Shown: piece by piece, positions 1 to 13,279 of the stretch
Layout of the letters: each line of letters starts with the position of its first letter
Numbering within the stretch: the stretch's first letter is position 1
IMG/VR virus record: IMGVR_UViG_3300033142_000627
Span: 1 to 13,279 of that record
Strand: one strand, 5' to 3'
Length of the DNA stretch: 13,279 bases
Source: a virus
Lineage: Duplodnaviria > Heunggongvirae > Uroviricota > Caudoviricetes
The notes under the pieces: generated by a model
What the model saw: only the letters and a program-made list of their open reading frames with translations
Told to the model about the DNA's origin: nothing
Databases searched by the model: none
Made by a program: the position numbers and the translations under genes

Positions 1-1683
1 GTCATATCTATTAAATCCCCACACAGATCCAGTAAATGCAATACTATAAAGGATTGATCCCGTATCATTAAAAGATAATCCTGCTGTAGTCGGCCCCTCT
101 GTACCTACATCTAATAAAACACTATCATAACTGGCATTCTCTAAATCATATGCAGTAGGGATTGAGTCAAACTGTTTAATAACTGCACTGTCAACGATAT
201 ACATTTTCTCACCACTATCGCCAAATGTTATGCCATACCCTGCTCCATCCAACGGAGCATTATAAATTTCATCACTATATGTTGCTGTACTAATATCCCA
301 AGGAGTAGTTAAGATGGTTACATTAACTGCGTCAGTAGAACGTACACCAAACACTTTTGTACCATCATCACTACACCAAAAACCGTCCCAAGCATATGCC
401 ATTGTAAAAAATTTAGAATCGTAGGATGCAGTAGACACATCCCACGCAGTACCTAAAGTGTATTGGTAAATTTTAGAAGTAGCTCTACCATTGACGAACA
501 TTGTGTATCCATCAGGACTAAATTGAATACCATAAGGTAATGTGTCTTCTGATATTACTTTAGTCTTTGAATCATCACTTGCTGTAGAGATATCCCAAGG
601 AGTACCCATAGTCCATTGATGAATAGTGTCGGTGGTGTATTCTAATAAATATACTTTCGTCCCATCCACGCTAACATCAAATACAAACGAAGTACCATCT
701 AAGTGAGCTAAAGATTTTGAGTCGTATGTAGAAGTAGATACATCCCATGCAGTACTTAAAGTATATTGAAATATATACTCTCCATAACCAGAAATATACA
801 TAATCGTGCCGGTGGGATTAAACACTACACTATCATATGGCGAAGCTGTTTCTGCTGGATCATAACTCTTACCAGTATAACTAGCATGTTCAAGGTTATA
901 ACCTTCAAGAAGCATTGAGTATTGATAGAGTACAGTAGGTGAACCACCCATGATGTACATTGTTTCGCCATTATCACCGACCACCACATTACTTACGGTA
1001 TTTACTGGCGTATATGGGGTAGTATCCAAGGCTTTATTATCATATGTTGTAGTAGATAAATCCCACGCTGTAGATAATGTATATTGGTAAATGCTAAAAT
1101 TACTATTTCCTGCCAACCATAATTTAGTACCATCACTACTGAATGACATACCGTACATAGTAATATCTTCTGATGTTGTTGAGAATGAAACAGTGTCATA
1201 AGTTGCTGTACTGACTATATACGGTGTGCCTAGAGTATATTGAAAAATAATATCTGGATCTTCATCTAGTACGTACATCTTAGTACCGTCACTATTAAAT
1301 TCAATCGCTCTAGCATCAGTAGTTTCTGTTGGGTCATAATCACTACCAGTACCATCATATACAGCGGTATCTAAATCCCAAGGTGTATCAAGAGTAAATT
1401 GCTTTACCTTTCCACCACCTACCCCAACAATGTACATTTTAGTACCGGCAGGATTAAAACTAATATCTGTTGGCGCAATATCTTGAGCACCAACACTCTT
1501 TGAGTCATATGTGGCTGTTCCGACATTCCACACTGTAGATAATGAGTACTGGTAAACTGTGTCAGTAGCAGTACCACACACATACATCTTAGTTCCATCG
1601 GGTTTAAATGCTAACCCCCACATACCAGATTCTTCGCTAGAAGTGAATTCTGTCCAATCATAAGTCGTAGTAGCTAAATCAGG
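1..1683 (-). repeat. C-terminal array of about 11 beta-propeller blade repeats (about 50 aa each) in the giant fibre
   Basis: Successive units include KPDGTKMYVCG..YQYSLSTVWNVGTATYD, NPAGTKMYIVG..KQFTLDTPWDLDTAVYD, NSDGTKMYVLD, SSDGTKLWLAG, GDNGETMYIMG, NPTGTIMYISG, SVDGTKVYLLE, SPDGYTMFVNG, SDDGTKVFGVR, GDSGEKMYIVD, NDTGSILYSIA. Confidence 0.85.
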
Positions 1684-4600
1684 AACAACACCACTACCAG
1701 CCGTATCAGCTAGTGTAAGAGTAATATCACCAGTAGTACCAGAGGGTGTAACGCCAGTAGAATAAGAGGTGTCTTCAATATCATATCCAGTTTCAACAGC
1801 ATCTACATCCCAGTCGTTATTAGTTAGTCCAGTTTGTGCAACTTCTTTAGTAACAGTAACAACAGGAGCCGAAGTCAATGCACTAATTAAAGTCATATCA
1901 TATGTTTCGTTTGTGGTGAATGTCTTTGTTAATGTAGCGAGTTCACTAACATCTCCACCACCTTCACCACCGCCGTTTGCTATTCCACCTAAAGCGTATA
2001 CTTCAACAATGTCGCCTAGATTAAGACCAACAGAAAGAGTGATGATTGCTGTACTAGTTTCTGTATATTCGGCCTTAGGTATAACAAAACCATTAACCAT
2101 GACCATAACAGAACCAAGTACATATTCGAGAACATTTGTATTGTTATCAGCACCGTCAAATACTGTTTGCCCTTGTGTTGATGTATATTCATATGTGAAA
2201 GAACCAAGGTCTGGTACATCACTGATATTTTCCCAAAGATGATTGTGACTATTATCAACGACTGATACATTACCAGAAGAATCAATCTCAATATCTGTGC
2301 CGTCTAATACACCACCTAGAACGCCGGTATCTGCAACAGGTAGACTATATGTTGAACCTGCGCCAATTGTAATCGTGTTGCCGATGTGTGTTACTGTTGC
2401 GCCACCAGTCGCGCCAAATGTAACAAGGTCACTTGAACCGATGCTCTGATTACCAGCTGTTTCGGTAGTGAAGTCCCAAGATACATACGCATCAGCAGTG
2501 TCAGCGATTCCGTCTAACTTGGATTCGTCAGCTAATAGGAATGAAGCAGTTGTTGCATCAAGCACGGCCTGATTAGTATGTGTATGTGCCGTTGAAATAG
2601 CGGATGTAATATCAGCGTTTGTTTGGTCATATGTTTCTAATAACACTAGGTTACCGTGTACGTGTTCCTTGGTAATCGCGTCAGCTATATCAACATCTAA
2701 CTGTGTGTATGTATCAAGTAGTGCCTTATTAGAATGTGTGTGTCTTGCAGCAGTATTCGCCGCAACATCAGTGTTAGCAGATACTTTCGCCTCTGTGTAG
2801 TATAGATTCGTACCTTCTGCAATATCAGAAGTTGTTAATACAACTATTCCAGTATAAGTATTAACAGAATCAACTGCACCAGAAGTAATATAAACATAAG
2901 CACTGCCAGACCAACGGTAAGTTTTGTTAGTATCGAGAGCAACATAGATTTTTCCTGTTTCGCCGGTTGGTGGGAATGACGCAAGGTCCGCATATTCAAG
3001 AACGTCATCAACATATGAAGGAAGTTGCGCTGTTGGAATTAATGCAGAAGAATCCAGGGTGGCAACGCCATTAGCAACACCTAGTAACGATACACTAACT
3101 TTTCCATCTAGCGCGGTCTGTAATCCAGTGATGCCTGAAATAGCATGACTGTGAAGAGTTATATCTGTGCCGCTTGTAAGGTCTGTATGTTGAGCAGATG
3201 TTAGGTGATAATACTCAGCAGTGGTTCCACCTTGCATGTTCACCAAATCATTATGATTCTTATCAGAATCGATATATTCATCAATTTGTACGTGTGTGTA
3301 CGTACCAATATCAGATAGATTAAGGTGACTAGAAATCTGTGTAGAACCGAAAGTTGTTGTGAATGAAGAATCTATTCTTTCTAAAACAGTGTCGCCTTCA
3401 TTAAGGGTTACAACGCCAAGAAGAATGCCTAGTCCAGATATCGATGGAGGAAGAAGAGAAGGAGGATTCTCTGTTAGTGCATCACTTAAAAGTTGATAGT
3501 CATCTTGGCCGTATACAACAGCATAATGAGAATCACCTTCTGTACTCATAACAGAGTAAATCCAATGGTTTACGTATCTGTTGTTTCCAATAGCAACAAG
3601 ACCGGTTGTTATGTCATTGTAATATGTATTATCTACTTGTGATTGGTCAGATACTACCCAATTAGCACCGTTATCAGCAGTATAGTAATATTCAAATGTA
3701 TCTACGCCGGTACTATCAAATGCTGGTAGGTCAATCTCTGTAAAACCGAACCAGAATACACCAGAAGTACAGGCTATATATAGGTCTGATGGATTCGAAA
3801 CTACTGCTCCGCCATTTGCTCGTTTGAATGTTTCTGTGTAGAATGACTTTACACGTTGTTTCGCGTTGGAATCAATCGAGTCCTCGCCTACATGCAAAAT
3901 AATTAGGTGGTTATCTTCTCTAACAATAATAGAGTGAGCAACAATATCTCTCATGTTTATAATTGCTGGGTCTGTTGTAACCTGGAATATTGGAGTACCA
4001 GCATTGTAATATACATATACAAAGTTTGTTGCGTAATTTGTAAGAGTTAAACCAGTTACTCCTTCAAATGTCGAACTTATCAACTCCGCATGAACGCTAT
4101 CCGATGGTCTTATTAAACACTCGCCGGCCGCGATATTAATGGTTCCGTTTAAATTATCGGTTATCGCTGCACCATCGACAATACCCGATGAACCTATGTG
4201 ATCTGATAATCTATCAATAGTTATGATATGCATAGGGTCGTTAATCGTGTTACTTAATAGAATATCAGAATCAACGTGAAGGTGGCCGACTATTGATAAT
4301 TCTGGAACATAATTTGTATCATATTCGTAAACAATATCATCGTCAACAACACTGTAGAATTTACTAGAGTCTGTAGTGAAATATAGACCGCGTTTGGTTC
4401 CTGCACCAGATAAAGTAAATGTGCTTTCGTTTTGAACAGCAGTAGAGATATCGTAAGGTGTAGATAGACTATATGAGATTAAATCTCCGGCGTCAACGCC
4501 TGATGTTGCAGGTGCGTATAAAACTGTTCCGCCGGCCGGCGCCCACAGGCCATAGAAGTTAGGGCTGTTAATTCCAAAATCATATGTTGCACTAATAGTA

Positions 4601-5811
4601 CTCAGATCCCAAGGTGTTGCAAGTAAGAATCCTCTTGTCTCTGACCATGCAAGGTCATGAAAATAGAAACACTTACCATCTGCACTAATACACACACCAG
4701 CTGACGAAGCGATACCAGATGTAACGGTAATGCCATTGGTTGCACCACAAGTCGCAAGACTCCATGCTGTGCCTAATGGATATTGAATAATCTCCTTGGT
4801 TCCGTTACCAAAGATGTACATAATATCTCCATCAGGATGGAATTGTAACATAGTTGGAGTACTTTCTTCTCCTGTAATAGAGAAAAACACATTATTATAT
4901 ACAGCAGAACTTGGGTCTCCAGGAGTACCTAGGTCATATTCGTATACTGTATTAGTTGTATCACCAATCATCCACATTCTAGTTCCATCAGGACTTAGAA
5001 ATATATCTCTAGGATTATCATCTTGTGCCGTAAATGAGAAATTATTTGTAGTGTATGTTACATCACTAAGGTCTGTTGGTATATCAAAAGCAGTCTTTAT
5101 GACCTCTGACTCAGCAGGAGACATATGGTAATAATCACCACCGGCGCCTCCTTGGAGATTTTCAAGTTTGACATTATGGTCTAATAGAGGAATTTGTGAA
5201 AGAGGAACAGTTCCGGTTCCATCAAGTTCAGCAAGTCCATCAGTTGCGCCTTTGAGTGAGGTAGGCAAAGCACCGATATCAGATGTTGTAAGAACTCTTG
5301 TGGTCATATTCGAAATATGACCTTGTGTGGTAGTTGTGATACTATCAACAATAGTCGCGCCAGAGGTATTGATGTCTGTTACAACATATGAAGGATGTAT
5401 ATACGGTGATATATCATTGTTGATTGTGATTACATCATCAACTCTAGTAAGACTAACATTGGTGCCACCAACAAAATCTACACTAGAATCAGAACCAATT
5501 ACTGTACTACCAGCACCATCTGTTAATAGATTCCAACCGGTGTATTTGTCATAGTCGTGATAATGTAAGTCGGTCTCATTACCTTGAGTAAGACCTATGT
5601 ATTGGGCCTCTGTAAGAGCGTACTCAAGGTCCGCAGCAAGGCCTTCTACATTAAGGATCGATACCTTATTTTCAATGATTTCTTCAACAATAGCATTTGC
5701 TATCGACTCAGAAAGTTGAAAGGCGTATGAGTGTTCATTACCGACCGCAGCTCCGTGATCGAAGAACTCGGTTATGATTCTGTTTCTTAAATCTATTTTA
5801 TTTAATGCCAC
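1..5811 (-). CDS. Giant tail fibre/adhesin-like virion protein, partial (at least 1937 aa, runs off the left edge); shaft repeats plus multiple beta-propeller modules
   Basis: Manual translation finds no stop from GTG at 5811-5809 (VALNKIDLRNRIITEFF...) to position 1. The start is 3 nt after the gp5 stop. Contains phage-tail-repeat-like HSHAISGITGLQTALDGK, fibre motif GVATLDSSALIPTAQLPSYVDDVLEY...TGETGKIYVALDTNKTYRWSG, and about 16 repeats of type F-x-x-DGTKMY...YQY-x-L-x-T-x-WD-x-STA-x-YD. Absent from the ORF track, probably because there is no stop inside the window. Confidence 0.9.
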   Translation of the reverse strand, partial: MALNKIDLRNRIITEFFDHGAAVGNEHSYAFQLSESIANAIVEEIIENKVSILNVEGLAADLEYALTEAQYIGLTQGNETDLHYHDYDKYTGWNLLTDGAGSTVIGSDSSVDFVGGTNVSLTRVDDVITINNDISPYIHPSYVVTDINTSGATIVDSITTTTQGHISNMTTRVLTTSDIGALPTSLKGATDGLAELDGTGTVPLSQIPLLDHNVKLENLQGGAGGDYYHMSPAESEVIKTAFDIPTDLSDVTYTTNNFSFTAQDDNPRDIFLSPDGTRMWMIGDTTNTVYEYDLGTPGDPSSAVYNNVFFSITGEESTPTMLQFHPDGDIMYIFGNGTKEIIQYPLGTAWSLATCGATNGITVTSGIASSAGVCISADGKCFYFHDLAWSETRGFLLATPWDLSTISATYDFGINSPNFYGLWAPAGGTVLYAPATSGVDAGDLISYSLSTPYDISTAVQNESTFTLSGAGTKRGLYFTTDSSKFYSVVDDDIVYEYDTNYVPELSIVGHLHVDSDILLSNTINDPMHIITIDRLSDHIGSSGIVDGAAITDNLNGTINIAAGECLIRPSDSVHAELISSTFEGVTGLTLTNYATNFVYVYYNAGTPIFQVTTDPAIINMRDIVAHSIIVREDNHLIILHVGEDSIDSNAKQRVKSFYTETFKRANGGAVVSNPSDLYIACTSGVFWFGFTEIDLPAFDSTGVDTFEYYYTADNGANWVVSDQSQVDNTYYNDITTGLVAIGNNRYVNHWIYSVMSTEGDSHYAVVYGQDDYQLLSDALTENPPSLLPPSISGLGILLGVVTLNEGDTVLERIDSSFTTTFGSTQISSHLNLSDIGTYTHVQIDEYIDSDKNHNDLVNMQGGTTAEYYHLTSAQHTDLTSGTDITLHSHAISGITGLQTALDGKVSVSLLGVANGVATLDSSALIPTAQLPSYVDDVLEYADLASFPPTGETGKIYVALDTNKTYRWSGSAYVYITSGAVDSVNTYTGIVVLTTSDIAEGTNLYYTEAKVSANTDVAANTAARHTHSNKALLDTYTQLDVDIADAITKEHVHGNLVLLETYDQTNADITSAISTAHTHTNQAVLDATTASFLLADESKLDGIADTADAYVSWDFTTETAGNQSIGSSDLVTFGATGGATVTHIGNTITIGAGSTYSLPVADTGVLGGVLDGTDIEIDSSGNVSVVDNSHNHLWENISDVPDLGSFTYEYTSTQGQTVFDGADNNTNVLEYVLGSVMVMVNGFVIPKAEYTETSTAIITLSVGLNLGDIVEVYALGGIANGGGEGGGDVSELATLTKTFTTNETYDMTLISALTSAPVVTVTKEVAQTGLTNNDWDVDAVETGYDIEDTSYSTGVTPSGTTGDITLTLADTAGSGVVPDLATTTYDWTEFTSSEESGMWGLAFKPDGTKMYVCGTATDTVYQYSLSTVWNVGTATYDSKSVGAQDIAPTDISFNPAGTKMYIVGVGGGKVKQFTLDTPWDLDTAVYDGTGSDYDPTETTDARAIEFNSDGTKMYVLDEDPDIIFQYTLGTPYIVSTATYDTVSFSTTSEDITMYGMSFSSDGTKLWLAGNSNFSIYQYTLSTAWDLSTTTYDNKALDTTPYTPVNTVSNVVVGDNGETMYIMGGSPTVLYQYSMLLEGYNLEHASYTGKSYDPAETASPYDSVVFNPTGTIMYISGYGEYIFQYTLSTAWDVSTSTYDSKSLAHLDGTSFVFDVSVDGTKVYLLEYTTDTIHQWTMGTPWDISTASDDSKTKVISEDTLPYGIQFSPDGYTMFVNGRATSKIYQYTLGTAWDVSTASYDSKFFTMAYAWDGFWCSDDGTKVFGVRSTDAVNVTILTTPWDISTATYSDEIYNAPLDGAGYGITFGDSGEKMYIVDSAVIKQFDSIPTAYDLENASYDSVLLDVGTEGPTTAGLSFNDTGSILYSIAFTGSVWGFNRYD
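2521..2745 (-). repeat. Three tandem 26-aa HxH repeats in the fibre shaft (third partial)
   Basis: RHTHSNKALLDTYTQLDVDIADAITK / EHVHGNLVLLETYDQTNADITSAIST / AHTHTNQAVLDATT. First His codons at 2742, 2664 and 2586 give an exact 78-nt spacing. Confidence 0.85.
4321..5079 (-). repeat. Isolated N-proximal propeller module (5 blade repeats) in the giant fibre
   Basis: PTDLSDVTY lead-in, then SPDGTRMWMIG, HPDGDIMYIFG, SADGKCFYFHD, PAGGTVLYAP, TTDSSKFYSVV..VYEY, with TAWSL/TPWDLST/TPYDIST motifs between them. Confidence 0.75.
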
Positions 5812-9668: not shown

Positions 9669-10124
9669 ATGGCCTACAACTACAAAAAGGGAAAATTTAC
9701 TCCAATCAACAAAGAGAAGTATGTTGGTGATGTGAATAACATCGTATACCGCTCTGGATGGGAGAAGTCTTTCTGTAAATACTGTGACTTGAATCCTGCA
9801 ATACTATTCTGGCAATCAGAAGAGACTATCATACCTTATGTGTGTGAAACTGATGGACGCATACACCGTTACCACATCGACTTCACTATAAATATGAAGG
9901 CATCAGATGGTACCACGAAAACATTGTTGATAGAAATCAAACCATTCGCACAGACACAAGAACCAAAGAAGAGAAGTAGGAAGACTAGAAAATATCTGAA
10001 TGAAGTAATGACATACGTTAAAAATCAATCGAAATGGCGCGAAGCAGAGGCATTTGCTAAGAAAAACAATGCAGAATTCAAGGTTTTGACAGAGAAAGAT
10101 TTGAAAAGTATCATAAATAAATGA
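9669..10124 (+). CDS. gp4: Head completion nuclease, gp4-like (TnsA-like PD-(D/E)xK fold), 151 aa
   Basis: KGKFTPINKEKYVGDVNNIVYRSGWE...WQSEETIIPY...DGRIHRYHIDF...LIEIKP...NQSKWREA motifs. Confidence 0.93.
   Translation: MAYNYKKGKFTPINKEKYVGDVNNIVYRSGWEKSFCKYCDLNPAILFWQSEETIIPYVCETDGRIHRYHIDFTINMKASDGTTKTLLIEIKPFAQTQEPKKRSRKTRKYLNEVMTYVKNQSKWREAEAFAKKNNAEFKVLTEKDLKSIINK
10112..10119 (+). promoter_or_regulatory. Putative late promoter (CATAAATA) upstream of gp2
   Basis: NATAAATA 22 nt upstream of the ATG at 10142. It overlaps the last gp4 codons in AT-rich sequence, so a chance match is possible. Confidence 0.4.
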
Positions 10125-10141
10125 TAACCAAGGAATAATTT

Positions 10142-10696
10142 ATGCCAGAATCAGAAGTAGTTGACAGTTTAAAGAGATTGAAGCGTTCGCCGTCAAGGGC
10201 CGCTCAAGTTCGTTCGGGCAAATGGTTGAAAGATAAGATTAATAAGTCTAAAGGCAAACGCATAGGTAAATCTTCACGACCAACTATTGGCAAGATGTAC
10301 TTGATGGGTTATAACCCAAAACATAGTGATACGTTACCATACTATGACGCATTACCTCTAATTATTCCAATCGGAATGTATTCTGATGGATTCCTTGCGC
10401 TGAATCTACACTATCTTCCAGCGAAGCCTCGTATCAATCTGTTACTGGCACTGATGCAGACAATGACAGGCAAAGGAGAGAACGCACGTATCAAGGCAAG
10501 TTACGAAATGCTTAATGCTGCGGCAAAGTATAAAGAGTTTACACCAACAGTACATCGTTACCTGTGGTCACAAATATCTAGTCCACCACTGATTATCGAA
10601 CCTGATGATTGGGAATATGTGGCATTGTTACCACTAGCGAAGTTTAAGAAGAAATCACGAGCGGCCATATACCGCGACTCAATGGGAATGATCTAA
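10142..10696 (+). CDS. gp2: DNA end protector protein, gp2-like, 184 aa
   Basis: GKMYLMGYNPKHSDTLPYYDALPLIIPI..GFLALNLHYLP..R..LL..L and HRYL...DWEYVALLP motifs; adjacent to gp4. Confidence 0.9.
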   Translation: MPESEVVDSLKRLKRSPSRAAQVRSGKWLKDKINKSKGKRIGKSSRPTIGKMYLMGYNPKHSDTLPYYDALPLIIPIGMYSDGFLALNLHYLPAKPRINLLLALMQTMTGKGENARIKASYEMLNAAAKYKEFTPTVHRYLWSQISSPPLIIEPDDWEYVALLPLAKFKKKSRAAIYRDSMGMI

Positions 10697-10697
10697 C

Positions 10698-11462
10698 ATG
10701 GGCATCGATATAGCAACACTAAAGACAGTTGTTGGAGAATACGCTAAACCTAACAAATATATGGTTCAAGTATTTCCTCCTACTAAGTTAGGAATGAAGG
10801 ATGCTGGCAAAGTATCTGACATCACAAAGAACTTCACAGACCTGTTTGGCAATAAAACAAATGAAGGCAACTATGGAGAACTTAGGTCTGTAGGACTTAA
10901 CTGTTCACATGCAACGTTTCCTGGTATATCTTTTAGTACACATGATGTTGCTCAGTCTGGTGGCGTAATGTTCAAGATGCCTTATGAGAAAATATATGAA
11001 CCAATCACACTGACATTCTATAATGATATTGATTTTAATTCATACAGAATGTTCGTAGATTGGATTGGACTATTAAAGAGTAGTGAACACAACAATGGAA
11101 ACCATATGAGTTTCTATAAAGAGTATATCGGCAATATACACATCTATCAGTTTGATGCAATGCAATTCCCATCACACGTTGTAACATTCGAACAACTTTA
11201 TCCAGTATCCGTTTCTGAGATTGAAATTGGTTATGATATAAAGGACCAGATTGAGACATTCACTGTAACATTTACATATAGGTCTTGGAAGTACGAACCA
11301 ATCAAACGTTCTGCCGCGGATATTGCTGCGACACTGAAAGGATTGACAAATAAAAACATCACCACCGGCGGAGACTTATTGAAAGCAGTTGCCACAGCTT
11401 CTGTTCCTGGTGGAGAATCCACATTGAAAGCTCTTGATAAGTTGAATGATAGATTTTTCTAG
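10698..11462 (+). CDS. gp54: Baseplate tail-tube initiator, gp54-like (gp19 tube fold), 254 aa
   Basis: KPNKYMVQV, CSHATFPG, PYEKIYEPITLTFYND..F.DW, FYKEYIGNIHIYQFD, YPVSVSEIEIGYD..DQIETFTVTFTYRSW tube-fold pattern. gp54 versus another gp19 paralog is not certain. Confidence 0.7.
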   Translation: MGIDIATLKTVVGEYAKPNKYMVQVFPPTKLGMKDAGKVSDITKNFTDLFGNKTNEGNYGELRSVGLNCSHATFPGISFSTHDVAQSGGVMFKMPYEKIYEPITLTFYNDIDFNSYRMFVDWIGLLKSSEHNNGNHMSFYKEYIGNIHIYQFDAMQFPSHVVTFEQLYPVSVSEIEIGYDIKDQIETFTVTFTYRSWKYEPIKRSAADIAATLKGLTNKNITTGGDLLKAVATASVPGGESTLKALDKLNDRFF

Positions 11463-11463
11463 T

Positions 11464-11504
11464 GATAAATAAAATAACTAATAATGATACATTATGTATA
11501 GGAG
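11464..11504 (+). promoter_or_regulatory. Putative late promoter (GATAAATA, 11464-11471) and ribosome-binding site (AGGAG, 11500-11504) for gp26
   Basis: NATAAATA in the intergenic gap; AGGAG 6 nt before the ATG at 11511. Confidence 0.55.
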
Positions 11505-11510
11505 TATGAA

Positions 11511-12254
11511 ATGGGATTACCAGTAATAGACGCACCAGTATATAAACTAACTCTACCTTCGAGTAGAAAGGATATAGATTATAGACCATTCCTTGTTAAA
11601 GAGGAAAAGGTACTTCTAATGGCCATGTCTTCTGATGATGAGAAAGAAAAGATTACCGCGATAATGCAGGTCATCAATAATTGTACATTCGACAAGTTTG
11701 AAATCGAAGAGATGCCAATTATTGATATTGAGTATATCTTCCTACATCTTCGTATGAAGTCTAAAGGAGATATCGCTGAGTTCTCATTCCGTTGCCAGAA
11801 CATCATCGAAGACAAAGATGATCCAGAGAAGAAAGATAAGTGTGACCATATAAATGATATGGGAATTGACCTTAATAAGGTTGAAGTTATTAACAAAGAT
11901 GTTGATCCTGTTATTAAATTAACAGATTCGATTGGTGTTGAGATGAGGTTGCCTAATTATGAACTAGCGGAAAAACTGAATGGTATCTCTGACACTGATA
12001 TTGATGGTATGTTTGGCATCATCGTAGATACAATCAAATACACATATGATGGTGACGATGTTACCGATATGTCAACAGTTGACAGGAAAGACGCTATTGC
12101 CTGGATTGAGACATTAACAAAAGAACAGTTTGAGAAGATTCAAAACTATTACGCGAATTTGCCTAAACTTAGTATGAGTGTTCAATTTGTTTGTGAATCG
12201 TGCGGTTATAAAGACGATATTCTTATCGAGGGACTAGAAAGTTTTTTAGTGTAA
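11511..12254 (+). CDS. gp26: Baseplate hub assembly protein, gp26-like, 247 aa (short product)
   Basis: MGLPVIDAPVYKLTLPSS..IDYRPFLVKEEKVLLMA, DIEYIFLHLRMKSKG, Cys ligands (RCQN..KCDH; CESCG) and terminal IEGLESFLV. Confidence 0.9.
   Translation: MGLPVIDAPVYKLTLPSSRKDIDYRPFLVKEEKVLLMAMSSDDEKEKITAIMQVINNCTFDKFEIEEMPIIDIEYIFLHLRMKSKGDIAEFSFRCQNIIEDKDDPEKKDKCDHINDMGIDLNKVEVINKDVDPVIKLTDSIGVEMRLPNYELAEKLNGISDTDIDGMFGIIVDTIKYTYDGDDVTDMSTVDRKDAIAWIETLTKEQFEKIQNYYANLPKLSMSVQFVCESCGYKDDILIEGLESFLV
12242..12248 (+). other. Candidate -1 ribosomal frameshift slippery heptamer T_TTT_TTA
   Basis: gp26 frame is AGT TTT TTA GTG TAA. The X_XXY_YYZ heptamer is correctly phased, and its -1 frame (TTT TTT AGT GTA ATC...) is the gp51-module frame. 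Confidence 0.75.
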
Positions 12255-12424
12255 TCCTCAGAGATGGGGACCTTTCGGATTATTACATATTAAATTTTGA
12301 GTTGGTTCATGAAGGATATGGTTTCACATTAACAGAATTGGAGAATATGTTACCTTTTGAAAGAGAGGTATATTCTAGTATGGTTATAGCAAGACTAAAA
12401 AAGAAATCGGAAGAGAGAAAGTAA
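12242..12424 (+). CDS. gp51: gp51-like C-terminal module, probably translated as a -1 frameshift extension of gp26 (fusion about 304 aa)
   Basis: The frame reads FFSVILRDGDLSDYYILNFELVHEGYGFTLTELENMLPFEREVYSSMVIARLKKKSEERK* (TAA 12422-12424). YY..NF.L....TLTELENMLPFERE is the gp51 signature. There is no ATG/GTG/TTG in frame between the upstream stop (12209-12211) and TTG 12302, which lies inside the conserved core. Confidence 0.8.
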   Translation, partial: FFSVILRDGDLSDYYILNFELVHEGYGFTLTELENMLPFEREVYSSMVIARLKKKSEERK

Positions 12425-13279
12425 ATGGCTATTGAAAACACAAGAGAAGCAGTATCGGATGTAACGCCTGAATCTGTAAGGCGCGCCCTAGGCGCCCTCA
12501 AAGAAGGTATGGGTTCGGTAGTACAAGTGGTGAAAAGAACCTCGTCCGAAGCTGGTCAAGGTGGCGAGAACATCAAGAAAGGGCTCGCCTCAGCAGGAGA
12601 TATGATGAGTCAAACCATCATGGCCGAACTCAGTGATTCTCCATTGATGATGGCTGGACTAGACATCGGCAAAGGTATTACAAAAGACATTGGTAAAGGT
12701 TTCGGTTCATTGTTTTCTAAATCCGAAGACAAGAAGGAAGAAGGTGATGATAAAACAGAAACATCGGCCGATGAAAGAGTAGAGAAACAAACCAAAGCGA
12801 TTGTGAAGAGTAATCCTAAAGAAGGCATATTCTCTTCGATGAACAATAAACTGGGTATGATATATGAATCTCTTACAGGTCAAAAACTTGAAGAAAAGAA
12901 GTCCAGCACGGCATTACATGATGCTCTAACTGGAGGAATCATAGTCAAAGCTCCTGGATTAGAAAAGGCGGTCGGAGAACTGGCGCCCTCAACAGAGGAA
13001 AAAAGAGAAGCGAGCAGAGAAGACGACCTATCCCCCAAAAAAGAAACAAAGAAGACAAAGAAGGTCGGATTCTTTGGTAAAATCTTTGATAAGATTAAAA
13101 TCGCTGCAATGGGAATATTCAGCATTATTACTAAAAGTCTCTTGGGCATAGGTAAATTCTTGTTGAAGAGGGTCGCTCCGTGGGCGATTGCTGCGACACT
13201 AGCATATGCCATTTTCTCTTCATTTGATAACATCGCTGACGGTATGAAGAAGATGTGGGCCGGTTCAGAGGGAGATAAT
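12425..13279 (+). CDS. Probable tape-measure / baseplate hub protein (gp29-like position), partial, at least 285 aa
   Basis: ATG directly follows the gp51-module TAA. Open to the window end (MAIENTREAVSDVTPESVRRALGALKEG...). Helical, low-complexity, Lys/Glu-rich stretches are followed by an amphipathic/hydrophobic segment (KIAAMGIFSIITKSLLGIGKFLLKRVAPWAIAATLAYAIFSSF). The call rests on composition and position after gp26/gp51. Confidence 0.65.
   Translation, partial: MAIENTREAVSDVTPESVRRALGALKEGMGSVVQVVKRTSSEAGQGGENIKKGLASAGDMMSQTIMAELSDSPLMMAGLDIGKGITKDIGKGFGSLFSKSEDKKEEGDDKTETSADERVEKQTKAIVKSNPKEGIFSSMNNKLGMIYESLTGQKLEEKKSSTALHDALTGGIIVKAPGLEKAVGELAPSTEEKREASREDDLSPKKETKKTKKVGFFGKIFDKIKIAAMGIFSIITKSLLGIGKFLLKRVAPWAIAATLAYAIFSSFDNIADGMKKMWAGSEGDN

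Follow-up and report, generated by a model that had tools for sequence, protein, structure and literature searches.

How many proteins does a gp26-like gene of a T4-like phage encode when its end is overlapped, in the -1 frame, by a gp51-like module that opens without a start codon? The question is raised by a 13,279-nt stretch of viral DNA, referred to throughout as the window, which is part of a 77-kb IMG/VR contig from an uncultured T4-like phage. Levin, Hendrix and Casjens in 1993 and Xu, Hendrix and Duda in 2004 reportedly described the gpG/gpGT pair of lambda and a conserved -1 frameshift of tail assembly chaperone genes, and an original prediction, made from the letters of the window alone, had placed a programmed -1 frameshift at a T-rich heptamer near the end of the gp26-like gene. 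Here, we compare this junction with those of its relatives. Judging from sequence conservation, the gene very probably makes a short and a long protein through a -1 slip on UUUUUUA, and ribosomal slippage, rather than polymerase slippage, is the likely source of the fusion.

Anatomy of the junction

The gp26-like open reading frame (11511-12254, plus strand) translates into 247 aa with the C-terminus ...GLESFLV*. Its 3' end reads GAA AGT TTT TTA GTG TAA, with AGT at 12240-42, TTT at 12243-45, TTA at 12246-48, then GTG, and TAA at 12252-54; the original prediction had given this end and an in-phase T_TTT_TTA at 12242-12248, with which the sequence agrees exactly. The -1 frame is open from 12212 to a TAA at 12422-12424, and a slip at 12248 would add 58 codons in that frame, SVILRDGDLSDYYILNF...EERK, giving a predicted gp26-gp51 fusion of 246 + 58 = 304 aa. 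A scan for start codons places the first ATG, GTG or TTG of the -1 frame at TTG 12302, within the conserved block of the module, in agreement with the claim that no start codon precedes that block. The nearby ATG at 12264 was likewise correctly set aside in the prediction as lying outside the module frame: it belongs to the gp26 frame and runs for 9 codons before a stop. The features of the junction are as follows.

11511..12254, plus strand: gp26-like gene, read as the short chaperone form (TAC-N), 247 aa; from PF12322, phrog_150 and an AlphaFold2 model
12228..12232, plus strand: Shine-Dalgarno (SD)-like GAGGG, 9 nt before the heptamer, a candidate 5' stimulator of the dnaX type; from synonymous GAG enrichment
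12242..12248, plus strand: slippery heptamer T_TTT_TTA in X_XXY_YYZ phase; from the sequence and from NNT TTT TTN in 87/87 relatives
12252..12254, plus strand: zero-frame TAA of the short product, one codon past the heptamer; from translation
12255..12270, plus strand: small hairpin UCCUCA GAGA UGGGGA, 6 nt beyond the heptamer, which may act as a local stimulator but is not conserved; from folding
12248..12424, plus strand: -1 extension, the gp51 module (58 codons and TAA), predicted C-terminal part of TAC-NC (304 aa); from phrog_634

Both parts of the predicted fusion are homologous to T4 proteins. The 247-aa product matches the Pfam family PF12322 (T4_baseplate) over residues 9-246 with 179.2 bits (E 1.2e-52), against a curated cut-off of 24.5 bits, and matches phrog_150 at 9.4e-59. 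In the 58-aa piece read in -1, profile positions 59-113 of phrog_634, 'baseplate hub assembly catalyst' (gp51), are recognized at 3.7e-16, in line with the gp51 signature that had been read in the 58 open codons. Profiles alone connect the module with T4 gp51, given that pairwise BLASTP of one against the other gave no significant match.

The junction in distant relatives

By tblastn, gp26 relatives are found in 863 phage records and the module in 163, with the module match starting at, or only a few bases away from, the gp26 stop. A scan of IMG/VR with a five-sequence alignment as query added 80 more loci with 31-42% identity to the window protein, and no DNA near-identical to the window was found in the phage collection. 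The junction set analysed here consists of 87 loci (the window, 9 isolates and 77 IMG/VR contigs in which the junction is complete), scored with profiles for gp26 and for the module and with a median pairwise gp26 identity of 38%. The isolates are the cyanophages S-WAM1, S-CAM1, S-T4 and C48C1, together with Pelagibacter phage HTVC008M, Methylophilales phage Melnitz, Vibrio phage D479, Caulobacter phage Cr30 and Paraglaciecola virus GD1. Four further isolates, Vibrio phi-ST2, Stenotrophomonas BUCT608, Pseudomonas pf16 and Aeromonas CC2, have the same site.

All 87 loci carry NNT TTT TTN in phase, 0-3 codons ahead of the gp26 stop, with the module in -1. Under the original prediction, the gp26 3' ends of T4-like relatives should share a slippery site with the module always in -1, as opposed to modules in variable frames with good starts of their own; the first pattern is what is seen throughout, and in 35/87 loci the -1 frame lacks any ATG, GTG or TTG between its opening and the 14th codon beyond the run. 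In the -1 frame, the module is recognized by its profile with E-values of 1e-21 to 1e-35. The gp26 stop follows the heptamer after one codon in 70/87 loci and directly in 13/87. Most runs (66 loci) are T6, with T7 at 10 loci and T8 at 11, and the heptamer ends with C at 61 loci, with T at 21, with A at 5 and never with G.

Conservation extends to positions that the protein leaves free. The codon ahead of the run is AGT, AAT, GAT, TCT, GCT or GGT, in which the amino acid varies and the wobble T is invariant, with a chance of about 1e-15 given the amino acids and the codon usage of the same genes. The first Phe is always TTT, with a chance of about 1e-12 given that codon usage. All conservation features hold in 37 representatives with less than 50% identity. 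Read from sequence, the slippery-site signal is real and not a product of chance, because the -1 piece matches phrog_634 at 3.7e-16 and because the same relation of heptamer and frame is present at every one of the 87 loci. The predicted pair of products, 247 aa and 304 aa, thereby gains support from the 87 loci, from the invariant wobble T and from an in-frame equivalent, T4 gp51.

The joined gp26-gp51 product is annotated in 0/15 GenBank/RefSeq records, in which the module is omitted or called as a truncated small ORF; annotation pipelines hence need a rule for the gp26/gp51 site. The RefSeq records of S-WAM1, S-CAM1 and Aeromonas CC2 have no feature over the module, so that some 190 nt after gp26 look empty up to the following gene. 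In Cr30, Paraglaciecola GD1, phi-ST2 and BUCT608 the heptamer is kept and an ATG at the gp26 stop (TGATG, ATGA, TAATG) is annotated as the start of gp51.

Outside the junction set, Salmonella phage barely (Ackermannviridae) has at 1900-2102 a gp26-like gene that ends GAA ATT TTC ATT TAA, with no canonical X_XXY_YYZ heptamer, and an unannotated gp51-like module (…ESMPW…) is open in -1. The Ackermannviridae may rely on another slip site or another mechanism.

The in-frame equivalent in T4

In T4, the two forms come from divergent neighbouring genes, 26 (208 aa) and 51 (249 aa), which have no T run, whereas the window has one gene and a -1 shift. T4 gp51 has the same domain as gp26: its residues 1-201 match PF12322 with 177.5 bits (3.9e-52), and T4 gp26 matches with 215.6 bits. 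Residues 147-246 of T4 gp51 match phrog_634 positions 2-103, and a profile built from 85 of the -1 frame modules matches T4 gp51 residues 200-244 at 2e-9, beginning at the Phe that is aligned to the slip site; the same profile has no match to T4 gp26. T4 gp51 is thus a gp26-type domain followed by the module, which is the architecture predicted for the 304-aa fusion of the window, and T4 gp26 is built like the short form. At the end of T4 gene 26, GAG TTC TTT GAG TTA CTA TAA, the run is broken (TTC TTT), as expected where no shift is needed. Judged from these sequences, T4 shows the frameshift replaced by gene duplication.

The comparison also bears on an older observation, namely that the 'gp51' genes of cyanophages and marine phages come to just some 20% of the T4 gp51 length (Sullivan et al. 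2010, PMC3037559). Their shortness would be explained because gp26 supplies the missing 200 residues via the shift. Separately, T4 is annotated with an internal product 26' (4803-5090) of 95 aa, corresponding to the C-terminal part of gp26, and hence the gp26 family already has a second route to two products from one gene.

Stimulatory elements around the heptamer

In the E. coli dnaX cassette, the heptamer A_AAA_AAG is accompanied by a 3' stem-loop and by an SD-like element about 10 nt upstream, a known 5' stimulator of the -1 frameshift. Sites of the window type likewise have an SD-like element 9-10 nt 5' of a tandem heptamer: in most of 85 loci, conserved Glu-Gly codons form GAGGG, GGAGG or AAGG at this distance. 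That the element overlaps codons that are themselves conserved counts against its role; its support comes from synonymous choice. The upstream Glu codon is GAG in 38/63 loci (60%), compared with 21% of the Glu codons elsewhere in the same genes (p 9e-12) and with 20% of the Glu codons before GGN elsewhere in the loci (Fisher 5e-9), though common descent of the loci means that the p-values overstate independence. When the loci are clustered at 50% identity, GAG is found 16 times and GAA 6 times (p 3e-7). By analogy with dnaX, the SD-like GAGGG probably pairs with 16S rRNA and promotes the slip.

Downstream of the heptamer, RNAalifold gave no consensus structure for the relatives' loci, in which neither a stem-loop nor a pseudoknot is conserved and the 60 nt after the site have a median z of -0.2, and a local hairpin of -6 kcal/mol or better is present in 8/85 relatives and is not conserved. 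The hairpin of the window (12255-12270) has 6 bp and a dG of -7.3 kcal/mol, with a z of -1.3 that is not significant. Without a conserved 3' stem-loop, the gp26 site is dnaX-like at most on its 5' side. It differs from dnaX also in that the heptamer is U-rich instead of A-rich and in that the shifted product is the longer one in the window and the shorter one in dnaX. We put forward, tentatively, that the T4-like tail chaperone site is a dnaX-type cassette whose sole conserved stimulator is an upstream SD-like element at a synonymous position. If this reading is true, the mechanism is settled as ribosomal and not transcriptional.

The heptamer of HIV-1 gag-pol, U_UUU_UUA, is identical to that of the window. 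However, the site in HIV-1 acts in a eukaryotic setting with a 3' stem-loop as its stimulator, and only 5/87 relatives of the window end the heptamer in A, most ending in C.

How the long form would be made

We think it likely, on the sequence evidence above, that the gp26-like gene encodes a tail (baseplate-hub) assembly chaperone and is read in two ways, through a ribosomal -1 slip. Most ribosomes would terminate at 12252-12254 and yield the 247-aa short form, while a minority, with tRNA-Phe and tRNA-Leu on UUU UUA (12243-12248), would slip back by one base. The tRNAs would re-pair on U UUU UU and the -1 frame would be read for 58 codons, resulting in a 304-aa long form with the C-terminal module that stands at the end of T4 gp51. 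The GAGGG 9 nt upstream would pair with 16S rRNA and aid the slip, much as its counterpart does in E. coli dnaX. If the two forms act like lambda G and GT, the N-terminal part common to both would coat the product of the next gene, the probable tape measure protein, and a tube-fold or hub partner would be recruited by the module that only the long form has. We infer that the slip occurs and how often, what the SD-like element does and which partners are bound.

The same fusion would arise if RNA polymerase, in a fraction of the transcripts, added one U on the T6 run at 12242-12247, with Phe in place of Leu at residue 246. Hybrids of rU and dA are the most slippage-prone, the conserved element is a homopolymer of 6-8 T (66, 10 and 11 loci), and the conserved 3' RNA structure sought in the relatives was not found, all of which fits a slipping polymerase, as does the title of Vladimirov et al. 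2022. Nevertheless, we regard transcriptional slippage as unlikely. The run is just T6 in 66/87 loci, and, to our knowledge, productive bacterial transcriptional slippage sites have 7-9 or more A or T; nor is the run being lengthened, because C is far commoner than T as the last base (61 vs 21). A slipping polymerase also gives no role to the SD-like GAGGG enriched 9-10 nt upstream. Ribosomal slippage is favoured because of that element, because T6 ending in C dominates and because the last base is never G. The window is a rare natural UUA variant (5/87) in which the junction residue, Leu or Phe, could tell the two mechanisms apart: Leu would show tandem tRNA slippage.

Both forms of slippage yield a fusion, whereas the records themselves suggest two separate proteins, in that they annotate a small 'baseplate hub assembly catalyst' gene, and Cr30, Paraglaciecola GD1, Vibrio phi-ST2 and BUCT608 have an ATG overlapping or directly adjoining the gp26 stop. 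The module would then be translated alone, by reinitiation at the gp26 stop or from a non-canonical start (ATC 12254), as a peptide of about 55 aa, and the T4 product 26' illustrates that unusual initiation occurs in the gp26 family. We find this very improbable for the window, which has no ATG, GTG or TTG before 12302, with none near the junction in 35/87 loci and with the SD-like element 21 nt from ATC 12254, too far for a ribosome binding site. The annotated starts sit within the conserved block and shorten it; homology starts at the T run itself (profile position 1). Independent translation also leaves the invariant synonymous T and TTT unexplained, and T4 has the module nowhere but at the C-terminal end of a gp26-type domain. 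In some lineages, the fusion may be accompanied by a free module that arises from translational coupling.

Some sequencing chemistries are prone to errors in homopolymers, and a metagenome contig is the source of the window, which leads to the suspicion that the T6 run is an assembly error in one fused ORF or that the module is a dead remnant. We give this almost no credence. A second IMG/VR contig is identical over window positions 10701-12940, T6 run included, and an identical -1 shift is required in each of the 87 independently obtained assemblies and isolates, with none fused in frame; because of these two observations, an assembly slip does not account for the site. A dead remnant is at odds with the clear purifying selection on the module, which is recognized in the -1 frame at E 1e-21 to 1e-35. 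No sequencing runs, RNA included, that contain window positions 11900-12700 were found.

Relation to published frameshifts in T4-like phages

The author of the original prediction knew of no described frameshift at this locus in T4-like phages. This part did not stand: Vladimirov, Gautam and Davidson (Virology 2022;566:9-15), as far as the papers that cite it convey, covers such phages. PMC10885494 cites it for T4-like phages in which a short gene stands beside a long fusion gene, and PMC12846349 for -1 frameshift signals of the poly-T type in the TAC-N genes of such phages. According to the summary in PRFect, it shows that some T4-like phages, in place of frameshifting, have one short gene and one long fusion gene. 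Going by these citations and its title, Vladimirov et al. 2022 may argue against ribosomal slippage for some or all such phages. The T4-like phages it covers appear, from the same citations, to have the same family (PF12322 with a gp51 C-terminal module) and the same pair of short and long forms as the window. On what the citing papers say, the kind of frameshift seen in the window is already published for T4-like phages, and the window is a new, uncultured and well-supported case of it. The synonymous-site evidence for an upstream SD-like stimulator may go beyond that literature.

A tail assembly chaperone in its gene neighbourhood

The AlphaFold2 model of the short form has a pLDDT of 91.3. 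In an exhaustive structural comparison, its N-terminal ~90 residues (1-88 in this alignment) match the HK97 tail assembly chaperone 2ob9_B with a Z of 8.0 (rmsd 3.6 A, 84 aligned), a value that is borderline by the fold tool's own scale; further matches are 3fgx_B (Z 8.0), YqbN 3klu_A (Z 7.4) and the PICI-element protein 5ir0_B (Z 5.2), and the first clearly unrelated chain, 5fvm_B, follows at Z 4.4. Foldseek against the PDB returned nothing at E 0.001 or better, and its highest probability also fell on 2ob9_B (0.77), but at E 0.44. The model thus lends moderate, not decisive, support to a TAC-like fold of the N-terminal domain.

The neighbouring genes around the junction are as follows.

9669-10124: gp4-like head closure gene; phrog_218 at 1.3e-54
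10142-10696: gp2-like end protector gene
10698..11462, plus strand: tube-fold gene, gp54-like baseplate tail tube initiator; phrog_45 'tail tube' at 2.3e-40
12425..13279, plus strand: start of a probable tape measure gene (gp29-like); weak phrog_4070 match

The tube-fold gene lies directly 5' of the gp26-like gene, in the place of lambda V in V-G-T-H, and records of relatives annotate the same upstream neighbour as tail tube or tube initiator. On the other side, the ATG of the downstream ORF abuts the module stop and the frame runs to 14044 in the genome. It encodes 539 aa, which is close to the length of T4 gp29 (590 aa), and matches phrog_4070, 'tail length tape measure protein', weakly at 4e-4; in HTVC008M and Cr30 the same position is annotated as tape measure. 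From its sequence and place, this ORF is probably the tape measure gene, an assignment that is weak. The order tube-fold gene, gp26, module and probable tape measure (on that 4e-4 match) then resembles V-G-T-H.

The lambda slip site is G_GGA_AAG. As in lambda gpG/gpGT, the window has a predicted short product and a predicted -1 extended one, with a heptamer near the end of the first ORF, and the second ORF lies in -1, overlaps the end of the first and has no start of its own. In contrast to lambda gpG, the gp26-type protein is without detectable sequence similarity to it and is larger (247 aa), with an extra Cys-containing C-terminal domain, and T4 proteins of the gp26/gp51 type are known as baseplate hub assembly factors. 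T4 gp26 and gp51 are listed as hub assembly chaperones, with gp51 absent from the particle (PMC3004832). We read the gp26-like/gp51 pair as the putative G/GT-type chaperone of the window's phage because of the TAC-like fold of the model, the probable lambda-like gene order and this listing; its binding partners are inferred by analogy. T4-type phages would then fit the general tail-chaperone rule of long-tailed phages. A complex prediction of the module with the upstream tube-fold protein scored 0.00, with a partner pLDDT of 49, and speaks neither for nor against their pairing. The major tube protein gp19 (PF06841) had no match in the 77-kb contig, and the control genomes gave none either, which makes this negative uninformative.

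The gp4-like head closure protein (9669-10124) also matches the TnsA-like endonuclease N-terminal domain PF08722 at 7.2e-16. Baseplate genes of the gp48, gp53/25, gp27 and gp5 types lie on the opposite strand, as does a giant ORF that resembles a fibre gene. This open frame (window positions 1-5811, minus strand) begins 3 nt past the gp5-like gene and runs off the window after at least 1937 aa. Its N-terminal 1000 residues have local matches to several minor-tail, fibre and peptidase PHROGs, and it looks like a mosaic fibre.
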